Part shown: in pieces, positions 40,807 through 63,619 of the stretch | Layout: each line of letters begins with the position of its first letter | How positions within the stretch are numbered: the stretch's first letter is position 1 | Position numbers and translations under genes: made by a program | The notes under the pieces: model-generated | The model's input: the letters and a program-made list of their open reading frames with translations, nothing else | Database searches by the model: none | What the model was told of the DNA's origin: nothing | Virus record (IMG/VR): IMGVR_UViG_3300007712_000002 | Coordinates: 28,504-92,503 of that record | Reading direction: 5' to 3' (one strand) | Length of the DNA stretch: 64,000 nucleotides | From: a virus

Positions 40807-41221
40807 AGCCCGGAACCTACAAAAAGCTCAAGTATGAACTTGGACAGCTAGTCTTTTGGGCTATAGTATTCGGTATCGTTTTACTAGGGTTGGCCCTATT
40901 TGCATAGAGGAGGTAGCTCGGTTGGTAGCTGAGTATATCGCCGTCGGCGCATTTGTACTTTTCATTATATGGGTAGTAGCAATGGGCGTTGGGGCGTTTG
41001 ACCGTAATGATAAATCCAACACAGATAATTGAGCTTGCAAAAGAAATTGAAGAGGGAGATCCGATCGACTGGTTAGGTCTCCCTCTCAATCGCGTGATGC
41101 AGTATACAACATGTTGGGTTTATTTGTAATGGAGCGTATTGAGGGCGCTGCTGGATTCACGCTGACCATCTCGTTTTAATAACACACTTGACATGTCCAC
41201 AGGTTTCCTGTATAAATAAAA

Positions 41222-41520
41222 CTGTATTGATGACGTTCATCATGATGTAGGACGGACCGGGGTTCAATTCCCCGCACCTCCACCAAATCAGACTGGTGCC
41301 TGACACCATCAAGGTAGTGCTTGTAAATAACTGGATGATGATTACTATGGGGGTGATATGGGATCGACGTATGCTGATAGGTGAAAAGAGATGCCCGGAT
41401 GTAAGCTCGGTTAACGCGAACGAATCTATAACTGCAAACACAAACGCAGCGCCAGAAATGGCAATCGCAGCCTAAGGGCAGCACGAGGTATGGGCTCCAC
41501 CTTGTTACCAAACGGGCCCA
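41222..41520 (+). ncRNA. ssrA: Two-piece, circularly permuted tmRNA
   Basis: T-arm plus CACCTCCACCA (ends 41285), intervening segment, GGGGGTG 5' end at 41349 (G3-U70), tag ANTNAAPEMAIAA* at 41434-41475. Confidence 0.92.
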
Positions 41521-41529
41521 TTTTCTTGA

Positions 41530-47185: not shown

Positions 47186-47698
47186 ATGTATACCCAAGGA
47201 ACAGTAGCTAACTTCAGCCCAGAACAGGTTGAAGAAATCGTGGACTTACTCTCCACACTTGACACAGACACAAAAATTTATTTCGGTTGTGACTCTGTCC
47301 GAACACGTAGAAAAGGTCGTTGGTATGCGACATTCGCGGCAGTTTTTATCGTTCACATGAACGGAAAAAACGGTTGTCGTCTGTTCAGCCACATGAGCAC
47401 AGAACCAGACTACGATGTGAAGATCGACCGTCCAAAGATGCGCATGATGAAGGAAGTCCAAAAGGTGTGTGAACTATATACGCAAATGATTCCATTCATT
47501 GATGAGTTTGACATTGAGGTCCACCTCGACATCAACACTGATCCAAAGCACGGATCAAACTGCGCCGCAACCGAAGCCGCAGGCTACGTTCTTGGCGTAA
47601 CAGGTCTCCCGGAAGAGCAGATCAAGCTCAAGCCGGAGAGCTTTGCTGCTAGCTTTGGTGCAGACGCCGCTGCACACGGTCGCTTCGAAAGAAGTTGA
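47186..47698 (+). CDS. RNase H-like YkuK/DUF458 protein
   Basis: YFGCDS, RMMKEV, EVHLDIN...GS, ASFGAD. Confidence 0.85.
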   Translation: MYTQGTVANFSPEQVEEIVDLLSTLDTDTKIYFGCDSVRTRRKGRWYATFAAVFIVHMNGKNGCRLFSHMSTEPDYDVKIDRPKMRMMKEVQKVCELYTQMIPFIDEFDIEVHLDINTDPKHGSNCAATEAAGYVLGVTGLPEEQIKLKPESFAASFGADAAAHGRFERS

Positions 47699-48297
47699 CC
47701 TATAGCAGGACAGATATAAAAGAGATGCGGGCAGGTTTACCTGCCCGTATCAACCGAATAAAAGAACGTCAACAACTTAAACGCGAGGAGCCGATGAGCT
47801 ACACTCTAAGGTTTTCAACCCGTAAATTTGATGGATTGTTTGGAACGGCTTATCCCCGTCTTAAAAAAATTCCTAACCATAAACGCGAAAGCATCATTTC
47901 ATTATACCTTAGTCACATAAGCAATAATTCCAAGGTGACTGTGGATTACAATGAAATTACACCATTTACCAGTGCTTATAGCATCATTATTGATACTGGA
48001 GGCAGGCAAGGATATAATGCTGCTCTTGAAATCGAACAAATTTGTCGTGGCTTTAAACGATTGAACTTTCTTAGTCCGCCACGGTGGTGGAATCGATTTG
48101 CTCCATTCCGTCATCCGAGCGACACTTTCATGATCAACGATCTTGAAATGGGTCCTGTCATTGAATGGCTACTAGAGAACTGCAAAACCAGTGACTACCA
48201 GATTTTTACTAAGTTTGAAAAGGACATCAGTATTGGCTTCCGCGACGGTGAAAATGCTGCAATGTTTAAGTTGACATTTGGCGAAGAAGAGATCTAA
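47695..48297 (+). CDS. Hypothetical protein (F-x-D/E...MFKL family)
   Basis: C-terminal FRDGENAAMFKLTFG. Confidence 0.6.
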   Translation: MTYSRTDIKEMRAGLPARINRIKERQQLKREEPMSYTLRFSTRKFDGLFGTAYPRLKKIPNHKRESIISLYLSHISNNSKVTVDYNEITPFTSAYSIIIDTGGRQGYNAALEIEQICRGFKRLNFLSPPRWWNRFAPFRHPSDTFMINDLEMGPVIEWLLENCKTSDYQIFTKFEKDISIGFRDGENAAMFKLTFGEEEI

Positions 48298-48300
48298 TAA

Positions 48301-48516
48301 CACATGCTCACTGAGGCGGCCGCACTGACAACCTAGTTGGAGTGAGGACAAGCTCAGGACAGGCCCAGAACCTGTGGGAGGCTATCGCCGCTCGTACCAC
48401 TGATACCGCAAGGGGGCTTGCAACGGAAACAGGTCGAGGTAAGTTCTATCCTGTGAGACCGGGTTCCGGCCAATAGACGAATGGTCGCCCTTGACAGAAT
48501 CCTGGCTATTATGTGA
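48301..48516 (+). ncRNA. rnpB: Compact RNase P RNA (about 215 nt)
   Basis: GAGGACAAGCUCAGGA / ACAGAAUCCUGGCUA form P4 with the bulged U; P2 GGCGGCC/GGUCGCC; UAGACGAAUG; P1 closes the ends. Confidence 0.85.
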
Positions 48517-48608
48517 GTTAGATAAATACAAGGTAATTGGAGAATAAAACATGCTAAAAGATATTTGGGTATAAACTACCAGTATTCATATTGCAACTAA
48601 AAAACTTC

Positions 48609-48662
48609 TTGACAACTGATGTCAAGCCATATATAGTGTCGAGTAAGAGTTGTGCATAAATA
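48609..48662 (+). promoter_or_regulatory. Sigma70 promoter plus late TAAATA promoter for the Cys leader
   Basis: TTGACA-17-TATAGT; CATAAATAC. Confidence 0.75.
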
Positions 48663-48683
48663 CCAGCACAACAGGAGAACGAA

Positions 48684-48818
48684 ATGACTTTTGAAGGATA
48701 TAGAGATGGAATTGTTCGTGGCGATGGCGGCACTGCTACTGTGTGCCCATGCGGTGAAAACTGTCAGTGCAGCCCATGCACTTGCGGTGGCAATTCCTGT
48801 GAAGGTTGGGGCGGCTAG
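48684..48818 (+). CDS. Cys-rich 44-aa peptide (candidate leader; metallothionein-like)
   Basis: AGGAG RBS; MTFEGYRDGIVRGDGGTATVCPCGENCQCSPCTCGGNSCEGWGG*. Confidence 0.75.
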   Translation: MTFEGYRDGIVRGDGGTATVCPCGENCQCSPCTCGGNSCEGWGG

Positions 48819-48881
48819 ACAATAGCTCAACCTTAAAGGATACAAGCCCCGCCTAGTGTGGGGCTTTATCATTTGAATTAT

Positions 48882-48963
48882 GTTGCGGGGCCCGGACGGG
48901 AAGGGGCCGGATTGCAAATCCGAGGCACGAAAGTAGCGAGTTCGACTCTCGCCCGCAACTCCA
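48882..48963 (+). tRNA. tRNA-Cys(GCA), extended variable region
   Basis: GTTGCGG/CCGCAAC-T-CCA; loop TTGCAAA. Confidence 0.8.
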
Positions 48964-48969
48964 AAAAAT

Positions 48970-49043
48970 GTGCTCGTGGCGGAAAGGCGACGCGCCGGAC
49001 TGCAACTCCGGTCATGCAGGTTCGAGTCCTGCCGAGCACTCCA
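48970..49043 (+). tRNA. tRNA-Cys(GCA)
   Basis: Canonical cloverleaf with CCA. Confidence 0.92.
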
Positions 49044-49200
49044 ATATATCCTATTACTATGCGGTTGTCCTCGTGGGGACCCCTTAAAACGAGAGTAAAG
49101 CTGAGCCTCAGCCGGTAGTCGCAATATAGGACAGTGTCATTAGACGTGAGATGGCACACCAACGATTGACAATATTGTGTTCACATGTTAAATTGAAAAT

Positions 49201-49509
49201 ATGAGCTATTTTCGTGATTTAAAAGTCTACAAATTGTTCCCCGAACTCAGGGCTACAATTAGACAAACATACATTGCAAAGTTGGCTGGGTTGTTGACTT
49301 TGCTTTTGTTTTCGCCACTCATAGCGATTGGTGTCATATCCATTGGTCTTGTCCATCTATTTGATTTGGTTGGGCAATACTCACTCTGGCCAGCACACAA
49401 GATAACCAACTGGCTTCATGACTATCAGCGTGATCAGATACGCTCAGCCCATTCTGTCGTCCCCATTGACAAAATCCAAGAGAGATTGGGAGATCAAGAT
49501 GACGACTAA
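49201..49509 (+). CDS. Membrane protein
   Basis: TM segment. Confidence 0.55.
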   Translation: MSYFRDLKVYKLFPELRATIRQTYIAKLAGLLTLLLFSPLIAIGVISIGLVHLFDLVGQYSLWPAHKITNWLHDYQRDQIRSAHSVVPIDKIQERLGDQDDD

Positions 49510-50638
49510 CATCAAATACTTTGACCGGTATTATGTTGGTCAACGGAACCAGGATACTGCCAGTGGCAAACCGTTGGCTTTTGCTGTTCCTGACGGTGAC
49601 GATGCCGCAGCAAAAAAACGCAAGGCAACAGTTGATGCCTGGGTCGCAGGATATTGGTCAGCACGAGACACTCGCGGTCGCCTCCGCAAAGACCTCAAAG
49701 AGATGGGCGAGGTTTACGATAATAAACCCATGACAGGTTTCCGCCTCACTGACTGGAGTGACCGTTACATCACTGACAACAAGGTAGTTCGTGTGCTTGA
49801 CCCAAGAGGATTCGAGCTTGAGATCTACATTCCCAACCTCATGGACATCATCCTTAACTCGGAAGTTGACCACGGCGAAATCAAGGATGAGCTGGTATGG
49901 CTGCGCGAAGGCAGCAACAATCGTCTGGTGCGCACATCAGATCCTGCTTTTGCTGAGGCTAAACAAAATATGGTTCGGGCTGCAAAGAAGAAAGCTGCAC
50001 CCAAGAAAAGTCACGAAGTTGGAGATATCATTTCCAACACCTGGGGCACATTCCTCTACATGGGACTCATGGACGTAGAGTTCGTTGTGCCTCGTGGCAA
50101 GCGCGTGGTTGACGACGAGATGACTCGTCAGTTCGGCACGCGCCGAGTTGGTGGTTTCTTTGGCTTTCCAGGTAACGGACCCATTCGTGAAGAAGTTTAC
50201 CAGACCTACTATCGAATCGACGATGACCGCCTTGAAAGCGTGAGCATTGGCCGCCGCCATGTTTACCAAGATGTTAATAGAGGTTGGAATGGGCATGTGG
50301 CAAGGGATACCATCACGTTCCGCAAGAGCAAGATGGCGACGCAACAAGTAGTGAGCTCTAATAACCTGCTACCTCCTGTAGGTGAGGAAAGTTATTATCA
50401 CGTTGACTATGAAGTGTTCATGTATTACGACGAGGATGGCCGGCTTTACACACAGAAAGAGCATTATGATCTGGAAGAAGATCTTAACAAGAACATACAG
50501 CGTCCGAATGAGCACAAATATCTTGAAGGCATACGCCAATGGAAGACCTGTGTCGTTCGGGTCAACGATGGACCACTTGAAACTGATCCAGTAAAAGGTC
50601 GCTTCCGTGAAGAACTGATTAGGGGTCAATATCATTGA
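49499..50638 (+). CDS. Hypothetical protein
   Basis: Long ORF; DN.P..GF...DPRGFELEI motif. Confidence 0.75.
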   Translation: MTTNIKYFDRYYVGQRNQDTASGKPLAFAVPDGDDAAAKKRKATVDAWVAGYWSARDTRGRLRKDLKEMGEVYDNKPMTGFRLTDWSDRYITDNKVVRVLDPRGFELEIYIPNLMDIILNSEVDHGEIKDELVWLREGSNNRLVRTSDPAFAEAKQNMVRAAKKKAAPKKSHEVGDIISNTWGTFLYMGLMDVEFVVPRGKRVVDDEMTRQFGTRRVGGFFGFPGNGPIREEVYQTYYRIDDDRLESVSIGRRHVYQDVNRGWNGHVARDTITFRKSKMATQQVVSSNNLLPPVGEESYYHVDYEVFMYYDEDGRLYTQKEHYDLEEDLNKNIQRPNEHKYLEGIRQWKTCVVRVNDGPLETDPVKGRFREELIRGQYH

Positions 50639-57856: not shown

Positions 57857-57931
57857 GGACCGGTAGCTCAGAGGCAGAGCAGCGGACTCTTAATCCGCGT
57901 GTCGAGATTTCGAAATTCTCCCGGTTCACCA
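57857..57931 (+). tRNA. tRNA-Lys(CTT)
   Basis: Canonical cloverleaf. Confidence 0.92.
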
Positions 57932-57976
57932 ACCTTGCTGTTGACAGCTAAATAAGATTACTGTAGGAGTAACACG

Positions 57977-58456
57977 ATGAGCAACAGCCAAGAGATGCGC
58001 CGTATCATGACACTAATGGAAGCGCCAAGTGCAACCCAAGAACTCGGTATGGATTTTGATAAATTCGAAAGTCTTTTGATGAGACTCACGGCAGATGAGG
58101 CTCGTGAATGGCAAGACCATGCTCAAAAAGGATATACTGACCGTCCAGCGGCACCCAATACTGGATCATTTGTTTCTCGGGGTTATGGAATGATTGAGCC
58201 AAAATATAATATTGACATATCAGCTGGCTATCAGGGAATGTTCACTCGTCGTTATGTGGCACTTCTCCAGATTGGGTCAAACATTTCTCTAGAAATACGC
58301 AAAGAAATCATCAACGACTTCAAAATTGCCCTTGCGGACAAAACAGGTTTCGATCCCGAACAGTCAACAGTGGCCGAGACTGATGATGGCGTTAGGCTAC
58401 ATTTTGACACAGTGAGCGGCACCGCATGGGGCGGTGTTGGTGTTTGGAAAGAATAA
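57977..58456 (+). CDS. Late protein, putative head-internal
   Basis: TAAATA promoter; MSNSQEMRRIMTLMEA. Confidence 0.7.
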   Translation: MSNSQEMRRIMTLMEAPSATQELGMDFDKFESLLMRLTADEAREWQDHAQKGYTDRPAAPNTGSFVSRGYGMIEPKYNIDISAGYQGMFTRRYVALLQIGSNISLEIRKEIINDFKIALADKTGFDPEQSTVAETDDGVRLHFDTVSGTAWGGVGVWKE

Positions 58457-58605
58457 CCCACAATATAATTTGATGACGGCCCTCAGGCGGTGGAAAGCAC
58501 TACAAGGCTCTCGGTTAGACGAAAGTTTGCCATTCTTTGGGAGAATGGTTGGGAGTCAGGAGACAAGTCCGGAGAGGAAGTTGCAACCCGTCATCAAATC
58601 AATAT

Positions 58606-58681
58606 GCTAGTTACTCTCTATCGGAAAGAGACGCGGCCGATAACCGTGGATGACAAGGTTCGACTCCTTGAACTAGCACCA
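58606..58681 (+). tRNA. tRNA-Ile(GAT)
   Basis: Loop CCGATAA (C33); CCA end. Confidence 0.85.
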
Positions 58682-58726
58682 AAAACTACACTCATAAATA
58701 AGTAAGATATATGGAAGGTATAGAAA

Positions 58727-59254
58727 ATGTCAAATATCAATGAAGAATCCTTTGATAGATTACGTCAGTTGGCAGGATTGAAGCCTTCAAAAACAGAGAC
58801 CGCGCCGTCAACAGCAACACCTCTAGTGGCGAGGGTCAAACTCGAGTCATTGAAACCTAGATATGTTAGGGTTGGATCTAAAGATGTTGTCGCTGCACTT
58901 TTGGGTGTGAACAACACTGTTGATCAAATACTTGCTAAAGTTGCAGAACACTATAAAGAAACGGACTCCTCTACAACGCCTCCTTTTGAAGCTAAGATAG
59001 TGGATGTAGATCCTTCTAAAGCGTCAAAAGTGCAAGATTTAAAAGAGCTCAAGCTTGAAACCGTCCAGAATCTGGACGCCACTCTCAAGGAAATGTGGGA
59101 TGAGCATGATTTGGCTGATGGATGGGAAATTGTGGTAGGCGACGGCTATCCTATTGAACATGCAATAAAAATGGTTTTGCATGATTTTATTGATGACTAT
59201 GTTGCTGATAATCCATTAAGGCATTCCAGCAACATAACATCTTATAGTATATAA
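58727..59254 (+). CDS. Late protein with DRLRQLAG motif
   Basis: CATAAATA promoter; MSNINEESFDRLRQLAGL. Confidence 0.7.
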   Translation: MSNINEESFDRLRQLAGLKPSKTETAPSTATPLVARVKLESLKPRYVRVGSKDVVAALLGVNNTVDQILAKVAEHYKETDSSTTPPFEAKIVDVDPSKASKVQDLKELKLETVQNLDATLKEMWDEHDLADGWEIVVGDGYPIEHAIKMVLHDFIDDYVADNPLRHSSNITSYSI

Positions 59255-59260
59255 ATTTAT

Positions 59261-59334
59261 TGCCCGATCTTCTAATGGCAGGAAAGCTGGCTCTGAACCA
59301 GACAATGGTGGTTCGACCCCACCTCGGGCATCCA
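59261..59334 (+). tRNA. tRNA-Gln(CTG)
   Basis: Loop CTCTGAA; CCA end. Confidence 0.9.
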
Positions 59335-59338
59335 AATT

Positions 59339-59445
59339 TGACAAGCAAGTGACGAGAATTGGCAGACGTGGCTGGTTAACAACCGGCTGAAGGATCCGTG
59401 AGAATTTAGGCCTTCGTGTGGGTTCAAATCCCACCTTGCTTGTCA
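59339..59445 (+). ncRNA. Leu-type tRNA-like element, loop TTAACAA, no CCA, 11-bp closing stem
   Basis: TGACAAGCAAG/CTTGCTTGTCA; Leu-like D arm; long variable arm. Confidence 0.55.
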
Positions 59446-59458
59446 TATAAATACACAC

Positions 59459-59755
59459 ATGGTAACAAAATTCTCAACCAACACTAGCAGCCAAGTTGCA
59501 ATCTATATCACTGGTAACGAAGCTAGTGGATATCGCATCACATACGAATTTTTGGAAAATGTGACAGATGAACAGGCTATTGCTATACGCACTAGACTAC
59601 TAAAAAGCTTTTCACTAGGACGACAGTTTGTAGATGCAAAACTATTGTCAGGTGCGCAACGCAAGGCAAATTTGATGAAGACCATATTTAGACAAGAATA
59701 TGGTCTATTAGCAAATACAGTTACGTTAACCAACGAAAGAAATAACGCGGGGTAA
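59459..59755 (+). CDS. Hypothetical late protein
   Basis: TATAAATA promoter; stop codon inside tRNA-Gly. Confidence 0.6.
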   Translation: MVTKFSTNTSSQVAIYITGNEASGYRITYEFLENVTDEQAIAIRTRLLKSFSLGRQFVDAKLLSGAQRKANLMKTIFRQEYGLLANTVTLTNERNNAG

Positions 59756-59829
59756 GCCTAATGGAGACTGGTGTCTTCAGCAGCCTTCCAAGCTGTGCGC
59801 AAGGAGTTCGATTCTCCTGCTCCGCTCCA
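59747..59829 (+). tRNA. tRNA-Gly(TCC), expanded D region
   Basis: Loop CTTCCAA; T-CCA end. Confidence 0.8.
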
Positions 59830-59937
59830 ATCAAGTCAGAAGGCCACGGTTCGAGTCCGTGTTTAGGTCAAGGGAAGACCACTGGCCCGTAACCTGCGGT
59901 AAACTGGTGACTGGGGGAGAGACCCCAACAGAATTTC

Positions 59938-60012
59938 GCTCCTATAGTGATAATGGTAGCACAGCCCTTTGGTAGGGGGCCAGCAAAGGTTCGATTCCTT
60001 TTAGGAGCACCA
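59938..60012 (+). tRNA. tRNA-Thr(GGT)
   Basis: Cloverleaf with CCA. Confidence 0.9.
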
Positions 60013-60105
60013 GAATAAATAATGGCACGATACAACAATGCCCAGAATGTAAAGCGGAACTTGGACACGGAGATTGGTGCCCGCAGTGCCGTGTAAGAAG
60101 ATAAT

Positions 60106-60196
60106 GGAAGTGACAATCTGTGAGGGTTCCAGGGAGGGATTGCTAATCCCATCGTGGTCGCAAGGCCATTGAGTTCGAGTCTCAGCACTTCCGCCA
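60106..60196 (+). tRNA. tRNA-Ser(GCT)
   Basis: Loop TTGCTAA, long variable arm, G-CCA end. Confidence 0.88.
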
Positions 60197-60277
60197 ACAT
60201 CGTTGGATTCTTCAGTTTCCAACAATCCTTGTCCTATATGCTGTGAAAGCGATCAGAACTGGACAAGGATCTATATT

Positions 60278-60353
60278 GCATCCGTAACTCAGGGGACAGA
60301 GTGTCGCGCTTCGAACGCGATGGACGGGGGTTCGAATCCTCCCGGGTGCTCCA
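60278..60353 (+). tRNA. tRNA-Arg(TCG)
   Basis: Loop CTTCGAA; CCA end. Confidence 0.9.
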
Positions 60354-60452
60354 AATCAAGCAGTGTTGGTGATGTGTTAGATCATATCACCCTTCCTTGC
60401 AAGAGTATTCTAAGCAGCGTATGCTATGCTACGAGAATTCAAAGAGAATCAA

Positions 60453-60959
60453 ATGCCAAGACTTTATTCAATTGATGATGATTTTAGTGGAAAAACTCCG
60501 CGACACAATCCGGCGCATTTCTTCCCATCAGCAATTTGGACTAGAGGGATGAGCTCAGATTACTTTTGGAAATACGATTTAGAAGGAGATTTTCCAGCCC
60601 GTTCTTACATACATTGTGATGATCTTGATGATAAAGATACAGGGTTTTGGATTGAGTTGCGTAAAGATGTAGAACGTAGATTTTTAGGAGACGTATTTTA
60701 CCTGTATCAGCGCATGGATTATCGCCGATGGTGGAATAGAAACGCTAGTGAATACAGCAAAGAATACGAAAGACAACGACATGGTTACTGGACTTTCTAC
60801 TTTGAAAACGAAGGCGACCATGCTATGTTTATAATGCAGCACGGTGAAAGGTTAAGTGATAAGCGTTATAGGTTTCACCCTATCATGGGTATTAGTTGTG
60901 AAGATCATCGTTACGATGTTCCAAAGGACGAAGAGGTAGCTAATGCCTGGAGAATTTAG
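60453..60959 (+). CDS. Hypothetical protein
   Basis: ORF; FENEGDHAMFIM motif. Confidence 0.65.
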   Translation: MPRLYSIDDDFSGKTPRHNPAHFFPSAIWTRGMSSDYFWKYDLEGDFPARSYIHCDDLDDKDTGFWIELRKDVERRFLGDVFYLYQRMDYRRWWNRNASEYSKEYERQRHGYWTFYFENEGDHAMFIMQHGERLSDKRYRFHPIMGISCEDHRYDVPKDEEVANAWRI

Positions 60960-61031
60960 CCCCGGCCGACTGGAATGGTCCCAGGCCTCCTAAGCCAGGG
61001 TGAAGCGGTTCGAGTCCGCTCCGGGGCTCCA
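60959..61031 (+). tRNA. tRNA-Arg(CCT)
   Basis: Loop CTCCTAA; CCA end. Confidence 0.85.
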
Positions 61032-61116
61032 AAAAAAGTGAAAACAGTGGTTGACAACCAATGTGCTTTGCTGTATTGTGATAGAGTAAGTTAAGCAAAC
61101 AGACAAGGAAATACAC

Positions 61117-61398
61117 ATGTCGACTTTTACCGCTGCTGATGTCAAAGCACTCAACTCGCTTTTGGCCAACGCTGATTCCGACGACCTCCGCCTCATGGCA
61201 GATCTCATGAAACGGCGCCGGGACCTGATCGGACGGCTGAATATGGGTCGGCTCACGATCGGACAAAAAGTCCAGTTTACGGGCAAGCGTGGTGCCACAC
61301 TCACCGGAACCATCCAAAAGGTCAACCGCAAAAAGTGTGTTGTCCAGACGCCAACCGGACTGTGGAACGTCCCGGGCACCATGCTCAAGGCAGTTTAA
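61117..61398 (+). CDS. Hypothetical early protein, SH3-like C-terminus
   Basis: Promoter TTGACA(61051); AAGGA RBS. Confidence 0.7.
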   Translation: MSTFTAADVKALNSLLANADSDDLRLMADLMKRRRDLIGRLNMGRLTIGQKVQFTGKRGATLTGTIQKVNRKKCVVQTPTGLWNVPGTMLKAV

Positions 61399-61413
61399 CG
61401 CCCAACAAAATAC

Positions 61414-61488
61414 TCTGGGGAAGTGTTGATGGATACACGCCTGGTTGTGGACCAGGAATATAGGGTTCGATACCCTACCCCAGGACCA
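61414..61488 (+). tRNA. tRNA-His(GTG), A73 and no G-1
   Basis: Loop TTGTGGA; ends GG-A-CCA. Confidence 0.88.
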
Positions 61489-61644
61489 ATTGGGACTTGG
61501 CTTCGGCGAGTCCAACCGTGCCCCTTGTAATGCTCTAATTGGTCAAGAGCTCACAAGATAATTAGAAGCCGGGCGACTGGTGAAAGGGTTGCGACGGAGA
61601 CAACAGTCCCGGAAAGGTTTGACCAACCAACTGTTACGAGATTT

Positions 61645-61719
61645 GGCCCTATGGTATATGGTTTATTACACCGGTCTGTCTAACCGGGGAACGGAGTTAG
61701 AGTCTCCGTAGGGTCGCCA
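61645..61719 (+). tRNA. tRNA-Asp(GTC)
   Basis: Loop CTGTCTA; G-CCA end. Confidence 0.88.
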
Positions 61720-61728
61720 AAATAACTA

Positions 61729-61803
61729 TGGCGGGATGGTGAGGGTAACACGAAGGCCAAAGCATCAGAACTTTTGAGGGTTCGATTCCCTCTCCTGCTA
61801 CTA
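61729..61803 (+). pseudogene. Degenerate tRNA-like element
   Basis: Acceptor stem and T-arm present, anticodon arm irregular, ends CTA. Confidence 0.5.
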
Positions 61804-61809
61804 AATTTT

Positions 61810-61884
61810 GGGGACGTAGTGCTAACGGGAACACACTGCCGTGGCACGGCAGAATTGAGGGTTCGATTCCCTCCGTCTCCACCA
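61810..61884 (+). tRNA. tRNA-Ala(GGC)
   Basis: G3-U70; CCA end. Confidence 0.9.
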
Positions 61885-61966
61885 AAGGCGTAGCTGCTCA
61901 TCTGCGATAACAGAGCAGTGAAAAACCCGGCCGCGCAGGGCTGGGTCCAAAATACGAAGTAGACAC

Positions 61967-62040
61967 GGGGCACGTCTATGGGTAGCGGCTGATCCTTGCA
62001 AGATTGGCGTCACGGGGTTCGATTCCCCGGTGCTCCACCA
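61967..62040 (+). tRNA. tRNA-Ala(TGC)
   Basis: G3-U70; loop CTTGCAA. Confidence 0.88.
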
Positions 62041-62124
62041 AAATCACCTTGGCGGCCGAGCGCGATGGCCGCGCATTAGAAATTTGATATGGGTTCGAAT
62101 CCCAGGCAGTCAAGGAGAAATCAT

Positions 62125-62201
62125 GGCACTATAGCTGAGTAGGTTCAAGCGCCCGGCTCATAACTGGGAGTAGGTCAGTTCGATCCTGACTAGTGCCACC
62201 A
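62125..62201 (+). tRNA. tRNA-Met/Ile2(CAT)
   Basis: Loop CTCATAA; canonical cloverleaf. Confidence 0.9.
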
Positions 62202-62213
62202 AATAAATACGGT

Positions 62214-62573
62214 ATGAGAGTCAAACAACTTCAAGAAAACGTTGGATTTAGACGTGACTGGAATCGAGCTAAAAAATCACTAGCTGCTCAAGTCACGCTA
62301 GATCAACCAGATCCACATCTTGGAGATGGCGTATACATTGATTTGATATCTACGGCCGGCGCTCAACGAGGCCAGGGCCACGGCACCCAAGCAATGAATG
62401 CACTCATGAAGATAGCTGACCGTCACAGCATAGATTTGTTCCTTAGTCCTGAAGCATTAGGACAAGGACGTGACGGTGCTCTCAGCCAACAAGCTTTAGA
62501 AAAATGGTATAAGCGTCAGGGATTTGAACCAGTCGAAAATGATGACAGAGTTTGGGTCAGACGTTCAAGATAA
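62214..62573 (+). CDS. GNAT-family acetyltransferase
   Basis: QRGQGHG acetyl-CoA motif; WYKRQGF; TAAATA promoter. Confidence 0.8.
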   Translation: MRVKQLQENVGFRRDWNRAKKSLAAQVTLDQPDPHLGDGVYIDLISTAGAQRGQGHGTQAMNALMKIADRHSIDLFLSPEALGQGRDGALSQQALEKWYKRQGFEPVENDDRVWVRRSR

Positions 62574-62695
62574 CGGGCGGTTGTTTGGACCACTGGCAGG
62601 TCCATAGGCACCTACTAACTTGCACACCTGGCAAGCTCTAGTAGACGATGCTGGTCAATTAGAACGGGTTCGAATCCCTAACTGTCCACCAATTT

Positions 62696-62769
62696 GCGGG
62701 TATCGTATAAAGGTATTACAACTGGTTGCCAATCAGTAGACAGGGGATCGTTACCCCTTACCCGCTCCA
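62696..62769 (+). tRNA. tRNA-Gly(GCC)
   Basis: Loop TTGCCAA; T-CCA end. Confidence 0.88.
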
Positions 62770-63116
62770 AGATCGTAAGCCACCGCATCAAGGGGCAACT
62801 GAAGATCCAAACTGCAAGACCGTGTGGAAGCAAGGTGGAAGCGGCGTGGAACCGTCATGTAGCATGTTGCAAAGCGTTAAAAACCGTGAGCTGGGGAAGG
62901 GCCAGACAGGCATGACGGGAAAGCAAAGTGAAAGCTGAGTGAAAGCGCGGACACTACAGGGCGAGGGCGCAGGAAGAACTTGATGTAGGAGCGGACCGAG
63001 CAGTAGGCACGTCGTCTAACGGTAGGACACCGGCATAGCATTGCAGCATTTGAAGCCGGAAATGTGAGTTCAACTCTCACCGTAAATACTGTTTAATTTT
63101 ACACATAGAGGTAATC

Positions 63117-63299
63117 ATGCAACTTTTTAAGAACCTATTCAACTCATTTAAAACTGAACCAACTGAACTAGAACTCAAGAGACATGAGCTAGCAGCTGAT
63201 CTTAGCGATGTCAACTTCGACCAGCGTTGTCGTATTCTTGACAACCTGATGCATACTGATCCTGAACTTTATGCAAGTTGGATGCAAGATCCTTATTGA
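63117..63299 (+). CDS. Hypothetical protein
   Basis: GAGGT RBS. Confidence 0.6.
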   Translation: MQLFKNLFNSFKTEPTELELKRHELAADLSDVNFDQRCRILDNLMHTDPELYASWMQDPY

Positions 63300-63301
63300 C
63301 T

Positions 63302-63553
63302 ATGTATCGACATATGACAAATGAAGAAAAGCAAGCGTTCTATGCGCGATGTGGTGAAATACTCGGTATAGAACACGACTGGAATACGCCAGTCAAACGA
63401 AGAAATAGATGGAACGCCCGACGCCTAGGAAATGGACGTTACCCAGGATTTGGGCTCATAAGAGTTTATGGTAGTGATGTGATGGTTACCAGCAAAGCTG
63501 GAACACGTTGGTTCAAAACTGCTGAAGAAGTATACGAATATTTGCACAGGTAG
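63302..63553 (+). CDS. Hypothetical protein
   Basis: ORF; stop codon inside tRNA-Phe. Confidence 0.6.
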   Translation: MYRHMTNEEKQAFYARCGEILGIEHDWNTPVKRRNRWNARRLGNGRYPGFGLIRVYGSDVMVTSKAGTRWFKTAEEVYEYLHR

Positions 63554-63619
63554 CTCAGCTGGTAGAGCAGTGGTTTGAAGCACCACGTGTCGGGGGTTCG
63601 AGACCCTCCTTGTGCACCA
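63544..63619 (+). tRNA. tRNA-Phe(GAA)
   Basis: Canonical D and T arms; CCA end. Confidence 0.9.

Follow-up and report, generated by a model that had tools for sequence, protein, structure and literature searches.

The analysed stretch of DNA (hereafter the window), a giant-phage fragment, comprises the 3' 64 kb of a 92.5-kb IMG/VR virus record that is estimated to be about 25% complete. Its large ORFs match phage helicases, a DnaB-like helicase, ribonucleotide reductase and families known only from PHROG, and it also holds a permuted tmRNA gene and about 35 tRNA genes, all on the + strand. The two-piece tmRNA gene at 41184-41522 was recognised by RF04321 at 110 bits and by the alpha_tmRNA model at 66 bits, which hints at a host lineage that uses two-piece tmRNA. 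Just ahead of tRNA genes, between the stop codon of a 200-aa ORF and a promoter-like site heading a Cys-rich ORF and tRNA-Cys genes, lies a 213-nt RNase P-like RNA on the + strand.

Anatomy of the locus

In order to define the RNA and its surroundings, the parts were assigned as follows, in window coordinates, with (+) for the + strand.

47186-47698: RNase H-like protein (PF04308, E 7e-12; phrog_11311), two genes upstream of the RNA
47695-48297 (+): upstream ORF, 200 aa, no Pfam family; its stop codon lies 8 nt before P1, and its homologues mark the syntenic site in relatives
47990-48018 (+): promoter-like site (TTGATA-17-TATAAT, 11 of 12) inside the upstream ORF, a consensus match only and the nearest candidate start for the transcript of the RNA
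48306-48518 (+): whole RNase P-like RNA, 213 nt
48306-48311 (+): P1 5' strand GCUCAC, paired with GUGAGU at 48513-48518
48315-48321 (+): P2 5' strand GGCGGCC, paired with GGUCGCC at 48483-48489 (7 bp, the bacterial length)
48323-48344 (+): P3 hairpin (CACU/AGUG plus CAAC/GUUG), 12 nt longer than in the relatives, which have 3 bp plus a UACG or UAUU loop
48345-48359 (+): J3/4 and CR-I (AGGACA), followed by the P4 5' strand AGC[U]CAGGA (48351-48359, bulged U at 48354), paired with UCCUGGCU at 48500-48507
48360-48366 (+): P5 5' strand CAGGCCC, paired with GGGCUUG at 48414-48420
48367-48371 (+): P6 pseudoknot 5' strand AGAAC, paired with GUUCU at 48443-48447 in the P17 loop
48372-48413 (+): 42-nt replacement of the S-domain, consisting of a helix GUGG/CCAC enclosing the hairpin GGC-UAUC-GCC, then UGAUA and a CC-GCAA-GG mini-hairpin
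48421-48468 (+): J5/15 CAA (within GCAAC); P15 CGG/CCG (48424-26 / 48466-68); J15/16 AAACA; P16 GGUC/GACC (48432-35 / 48457-60); P17 AGG/CCU (48437-40 / 48449-52); J16/15 GGGUU (48461-48465, the 3'-CCA-binding GGU)
48469-48482 (+): J15/2 (CR-IV) GCCAAUAGACGAAU, joined directly to P15
48490-48507 (+): J2/4 with CR-V ACAGAA (within 48490-99), then the P4 3' strand UCCUGGCU
48608-48626: near-perfect 7-bp palindromic hairpin (CTTGACA...TGTCAAG) overlapping the -35 box of the downstream promoter-like site
48609-49043 (+): downstream unit of a promoter-like site (TTGACA-17-TATAGT), a Cys-rich 44-aa ORF (48684-48818), a tRNA-like gene (about 48882-48960) and tRNA-Cys (48970-49043)

The observation made in the first-pass annotation, namely that the catalytic core of an RNase P RNA (P1-P5, P4 with a bulged U, CR-IV and CR-V) fits into about 215 nt at 48301-48516, is confirmed, although the ends set by the terminal helix P1 differ slightly from those proposed. 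The sequence GAGGACAAGCTC lies at 48344-48355, and CR-IV (AAUAGACGAAUGG, leading into the 3' strand of P2) and CR-V are present. P6, P15, P16 and P17, which that annotation had missed, are present as well. The deviation of CR-I that it had pointed out is real and consists of a 2-nt insertion (CA) in J3/4 shared with the related locus L010 (see below), whereas the other minimal RNAs read GAGGAAGCUC, plus two P4 pairs next to the bulged U that differ from the bacterial consensus on both strands, which could affect metal binding.

The RNA thus keeps P1-P6, P15-P17, the GGU loop, CR-I, CR-IV and CR-V, but the specificity domain (P7-P14) with CR-II and CR-III is missing, and so is P18, since the 3' strand of P15 is followed directly by GCCAAUAGA. 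In the 42-nt stub, the GUGG/CCAC helix covaries with GUAG/CUAC, the hairpin loop is UAUC in the window and GAAA in L010 and L030, and L022 and L026 carry a 30-nt extension. A reading of the stub as a kink-turn was considered and dropped because no tandem G-A arrangement fits.

Homology and covariation

In a first step, the window was searched with the Rfam models. At the curated thresholds only tRNAs and tmRNA were found, without any RNase P hit. With permissive filters, however, bacterial class A RNase P RNA (RF00010) aligned end to end, with model positions 1-367 on 48304-48524, at 26.9 bits against a gathering threshold of 100 bits, with an E-value of 1.1e-6 against all 4227 families and 4.6e-8 in the whole 92.5-kb record. 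RF00010 was the best match within its clan. The alignment matched the conserved single-stranded blocks, i.e. CGC after P2, GAGGA of CR-I, GCAA of J5/15, CCGGGU of L15, AGAcGAAUGG of CR-IV and ACAGAA of CR-V, while deleting the S-domain and P18. The minimum-free-energy fold alone was not better than that of shuffled sequence (z = +0.91), as expected for a pseudoknotted RNA.

In order to find relatives, we searched for homologues of the upstream protein, which led to four metagenome loci. L009 is nearly the same phage, and its RNA differs by one loop base. L010, whose upstream protein is only 43% identical, carries a clearly homologous RNA at the same place, which was not flagged by Rfam. L011 and L012 go straight from the protein to the Cys-rich ORF and tRNA-Cys genes without the RNA, which is thus dispensable or sits elsewhere in those genomes. 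The downstream module of a strong promoter-like site, a Cys-rich ORF of about 40-45 aa with CxC motifs (weak sub-threshold match to plant metallothionein PF02068) and one to three tRNA-Cys or tRNA-like genes is conserved in all four related lineages whether or not the RNA is present (window 48609-49043; L010:4760-5111; L011:4600-5120; L012:280-716). A gapped motif scan of IMG/VR then gave 19 hits, of which 12 lay inside ORFs and were due to chance, and seven were viral contigs with RNase P-like RNAs. L022, L026 and L030 have the same minimal architecture. L019 (20-237, - strand) is a GC-rich reduced form at the end of a cluster of 12 tRNA genes in a 143-kb viral contig, and was missed by Rfam at E 0.01. 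L028 (3521-3687, + strand) is a partial copy with an intact 3' half and a 5' half that lacks CR-I, overlapped by a promoter-led ORF of about 70 aa, and is possibly a disrupted copy. L020 (3476-3854, - strand, 379 nt) and L023 (1102-1400, - strand, 299 nt) are larger and pass the class A threshold of Rfam at 165 and 189 bits, respectively; L023 is part of a 332-kb viral genome rated 100% complete. All of these RNAs lie on the same strand as phage tRNA clusters, beside or within them, and give a size series of 379, 299, about 236, 213 and 200 nt.

Other searches did not add relatives. BLAST of the region and of relatives against 50,697 deposited phage genomes gave no true match, the only hit being a misfiled Salmonella scaffold matching its own rnpB. 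Single-protein searches of IMG/VR with both flanking ORFs and an alignment-based search of IMG/VR returned nothing. A 17-mer pattern gave seven chance hits (L002-L008), six of which showed no RNase P signal with Rfam, while L008 was checked with the model described below only. The P18-less junction motif occurred in five IMG/VR contigs, whereas in one genome from each of 185,579 bacterial and archaeal species it gave only two matches, both on MAG contigs (L032 and L033) and both due to chance, as they had neither a model hit nor tRNAs.

In a second step, a covariance model, R1, was built from L010, L022, L026 and L030 only, i.e. without the window, covering P2 through the P4 3' strand with nested helices only. 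R1 found exactly one site in the 64-kb window, 48315-48509 on the + strand, at 155.2 bits and E about 1e-43, although the E-values of R1 are rough because of a short calibration. L028 and L019 scored 70.9 and 36 bits on R1, respectively. The absence of any covariance-model hit, which had been named beforehand as a refuting outcome, was therefore not observed, even though the curated Rfam threshold was missed.

Covariation was assessed on five RNAs (the window, L010, L022, L026 and L030) that represent four lineages with 65-78% identity to one another, L022 and L026 being 91% identical. Since MAFFT misregistered the longer P3 of the window, we used the alignment made by the covariance model, to which P4 and P6 were added by hand. 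In the 45 proposed pairs, 98.2% of cells were paired, compared to 35-43% when the partners were slid by 1-3 columns, and 19 pairs changed on both sides, a number reached by 0 of 500 shuffles. Each of the nine helices had at least one compensated pair: three of the 7 pairs of P2, two pairs of P4, two of P5 and three of the 5 pairs of P6 changed on both sides, and P15, P16 and P17 each covaried. The bulged U in P4 was invariant and CR-IV nearly so. P4 and P6 were not part of the aligning model, so that the alignment was not fitted to them; P6 reads AGAAC/GUUCU in the window, GGGAC/GUCCC in L010, GAAAC/GUUUC in L030 and GACAC/GUGUC in L022 and L026. P1, examined separately, was present in all five RNAs as a terminal helix of 6-12 bp with unrelated sequences. 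The maintenance of the pairs, in spite of only 43% identity of the adjacent protein between the window and L010, argues for purifying selection. A protein-coding reading was rejected, since the alignment with L010 has several 1-nt indels and changes that preserve pairs rather than codons.

Comparison with known RNase P RNAs

The catalytic-domain architecture is that of bacterial class A RNase P RNA (E. coli M1 RNA, rnpB): P1-P6, P15-P17, a 7-bp P2, P4 with 3 bp, a bulged U and 5 bp, the P6 pseudoknot, the J16/15 GGU, and CR-I, CR-IV and CR-V. It differs from class A by its length of 213 nt instead of about 350-400, the absence of P7-P14 and P18, the direct transition from P15 to J15/2, the insertion in J3/4, the low RF00010 score and its location in a phage. 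Archaeal type T RNase P RNA of Thermoproteaceae (RF02357; PMC3012483, PMC3579882) is likewise a natural RNA that keeps the catalytic domain, lacks most of the S-domain, has P6 but no P18 and is missed by the standard covariance model. Type T is, however, chromosomal and the only RNase P RNA of the cell, works with archaeal proteins and has a 3-bp P2 and a 2-nt P5/P15 linker, whereas the phage RNA is an accessory gene of a virus with the bacterial 7-bp P2 and GCAA linker. The engineered C-domain ribozyme of E. coli (PMC5839562) has essentially the same parts list. It is active without the S-domain, loses all activity without P15-17, depends on a P6-like pairing and does not need P18 once the S-domain is gone, but it is a laboratory truncation that is 120- to 500-fold less efficient in vitro, whereas the phage RNA is a natural form with a conserved 34-73-nt stub in place of the S-domain. 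The larger phage-borne RNAs L023 and L020 are embedded in phage tRNA arrays and share the CR-I variant GAGGAAGYUC, but they keep S-domain-like parts and P18.

No description of a phage-encoded RNase P RNA was found in full-text literature searches, which did not cover subscription journals, and a 2024 review and a 2026 evolutionary study do not mention one. The only viral case found was the camelpox RNase P-like RNA (PMC3001073), which comes from a eukaryotic virus, has only loose structural similarity to RNase P RNA, showed no pre-tRNA cleavage in vitro and is not linked to tRNA genes.

Proposed role in tRNA processing

The interpretation given in the first-pass annotation, a compact RNase P RNA with an intact catalytic core and without room for most peripheral helices upstream of the tRNA genes, is supported by homology and covariation, whereas its additional proposals that the RNA may process atypical tRNAs and tmRNA and probably uses the host protein subunit remain hypotheses. 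We explain the locus as encoding an RNase P RNA of bacterial type-A descent that has been reduced to its catalytic domain and belongs to a small family found so far only on viral contigs and related unclassified metagenome contigs, and we assign this explanation, including the proposed function, a probability of roughly 0.7. In this view, the RNA would be transcribed with or just behind the upstream gene and trimmed to the P1 helix, would bind the acceptor end of pre-tRNAs through GGU-CCA pairing and the J5/15 adenosines next to U(-1), and would cut off the 5' leader by metal-ion catalysis at P4 without reading the tRNA elbow. Probably helped by the RnpA protein of the host, it would add leader-trimming capacity for the 30-plus tRNAs of the phage. 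The analysis itself demonstrates the homology, the folded architecture, the conservation of the catalytic-core nucleotides, the linkage to tRNA genes and the matching substrate features, whereas expression, cleavage activity, the protein partner, the transcript ends and the benefit to the phage are inferred.

The substrate features fit recognition of the acceptor end. Among the 24 tRNA genes examined at 48970-63616, 21 encode 3'-CCA, the ligand of the GGU loop, and, by our count of the leaders, 18 have U at position -1, while three tRNA-like genes (54645, 55040 and 59343) lack CCA. U(-1) is preferred by bacterial RNase P RNA through A248. With regard to the protein partner, no RnpA gene (PF00825) was found in this fragment, in three related fragments or in the complete 332-kb phage carrying the 299-nt RNA, and therefore a host protein partner, or none, is inferred. 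The RNA starts 8 nt after the upstream stop codon both in the window and in L010, and overlaps the end of an upstream ORF in L022 and L026. Since the nearest promoter-like site is inside the upstream ORF, co-transcription followed by trimming is the likely, albeit unproven, route. Points against the explanation are that no promoter lies directly upstream and no terminator downstream, that the Rfam score is far below the curated cut-off, that the thermodynamic fold is no better than that of shuffled sequence, that C-domain-only constructs are much less efficient in vitro, and that L011 and L012 lack the RNA at the syntenic site.

Among the alternatives, an active ribozyme whose real substrates are not ordinary tRNAs is unlikely. 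Candidate substrates would be the permuted tmRNA precursor (41184-41522), the large tRNA-module RNA at 51555-52152 or the CCA-less tRNA-like elements, and loss of the S-domain, which reads the T-loop/D-loop elbow, would widen or shift the specificity. The window does hold the permuted tmRNA and several odd tRNA-like genes, but L022, L026 and L030 sit among ordinary tRNA genes, and the GGU loop and the CCA and U(-1) features point to standard acceptor-end recognition. Similarly unlikely is a non-catalytic decoy that keeps the surface binding RnpA or pre-tRNA acceptor ends in order to sequester the host protein or substrates and skew tRNA maturation during infection, an idea similar to one once proposed for the camelpox RNA. 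The failure to find an RnpA gene in the phage records searched, the strong reduction of the RNA, its poor RF00010 score and the precedent of an inactive viral RNase P-like RNA are in line with a decoy, but a decoy would not need an invariant bulged U in P4, invariant ACAGAA, the GGU loop and a covarying P6 all together, the retained set is exactly the one needed for catalysis by the C-domain alone, and sabotaging tRNA 5' processing would also hurt the phage's own tRNAs. A decaying relic of a captured host rnpB gene, suggested by the absence of the RNA from the syntenic site in L011 and L012 and by the apparently damaged copy in L028, is disfavoured by the 19 compensated pairs across lineages, the invariant single-stranded catalytic blocks and the recurrence of the same reduced architecture in contigs from different samples.

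A more far-reaching and tentative reading is that large phages carry their own naturally miniaturised RNase P ribozyme, a bacterial-lineage counterpart of archaeal type T, that works on the acceptor end alone, either without protein or by borrowing host RnpA. This would let the phage mature its own tRNAs, including ones with non-standard elbows, independently of the host enzyme, and would provide a ready-made minimal RNase P for structural and mechanistic work. RNase P RNA is one of the few universal ribozymes. Outside one archaeal family, every natural RNA form studied has a specificity domain, bacterial RNase P RNAs are treated as strictly cellular genes, and standard Rfam annotation misses the group described here. 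A selected, 200-240-nt, S-domain-less form of bacterial descent in phages would offer a compact molecule for structural, kinetic and gene-targeting (external guide sequence) work, would be a natural experiment confirming that P6 and P15-17 without P18 or the S-domain are sufficient, and would extend the viral translation toolkit of tRNAs and tmRNA to a ribozyme.
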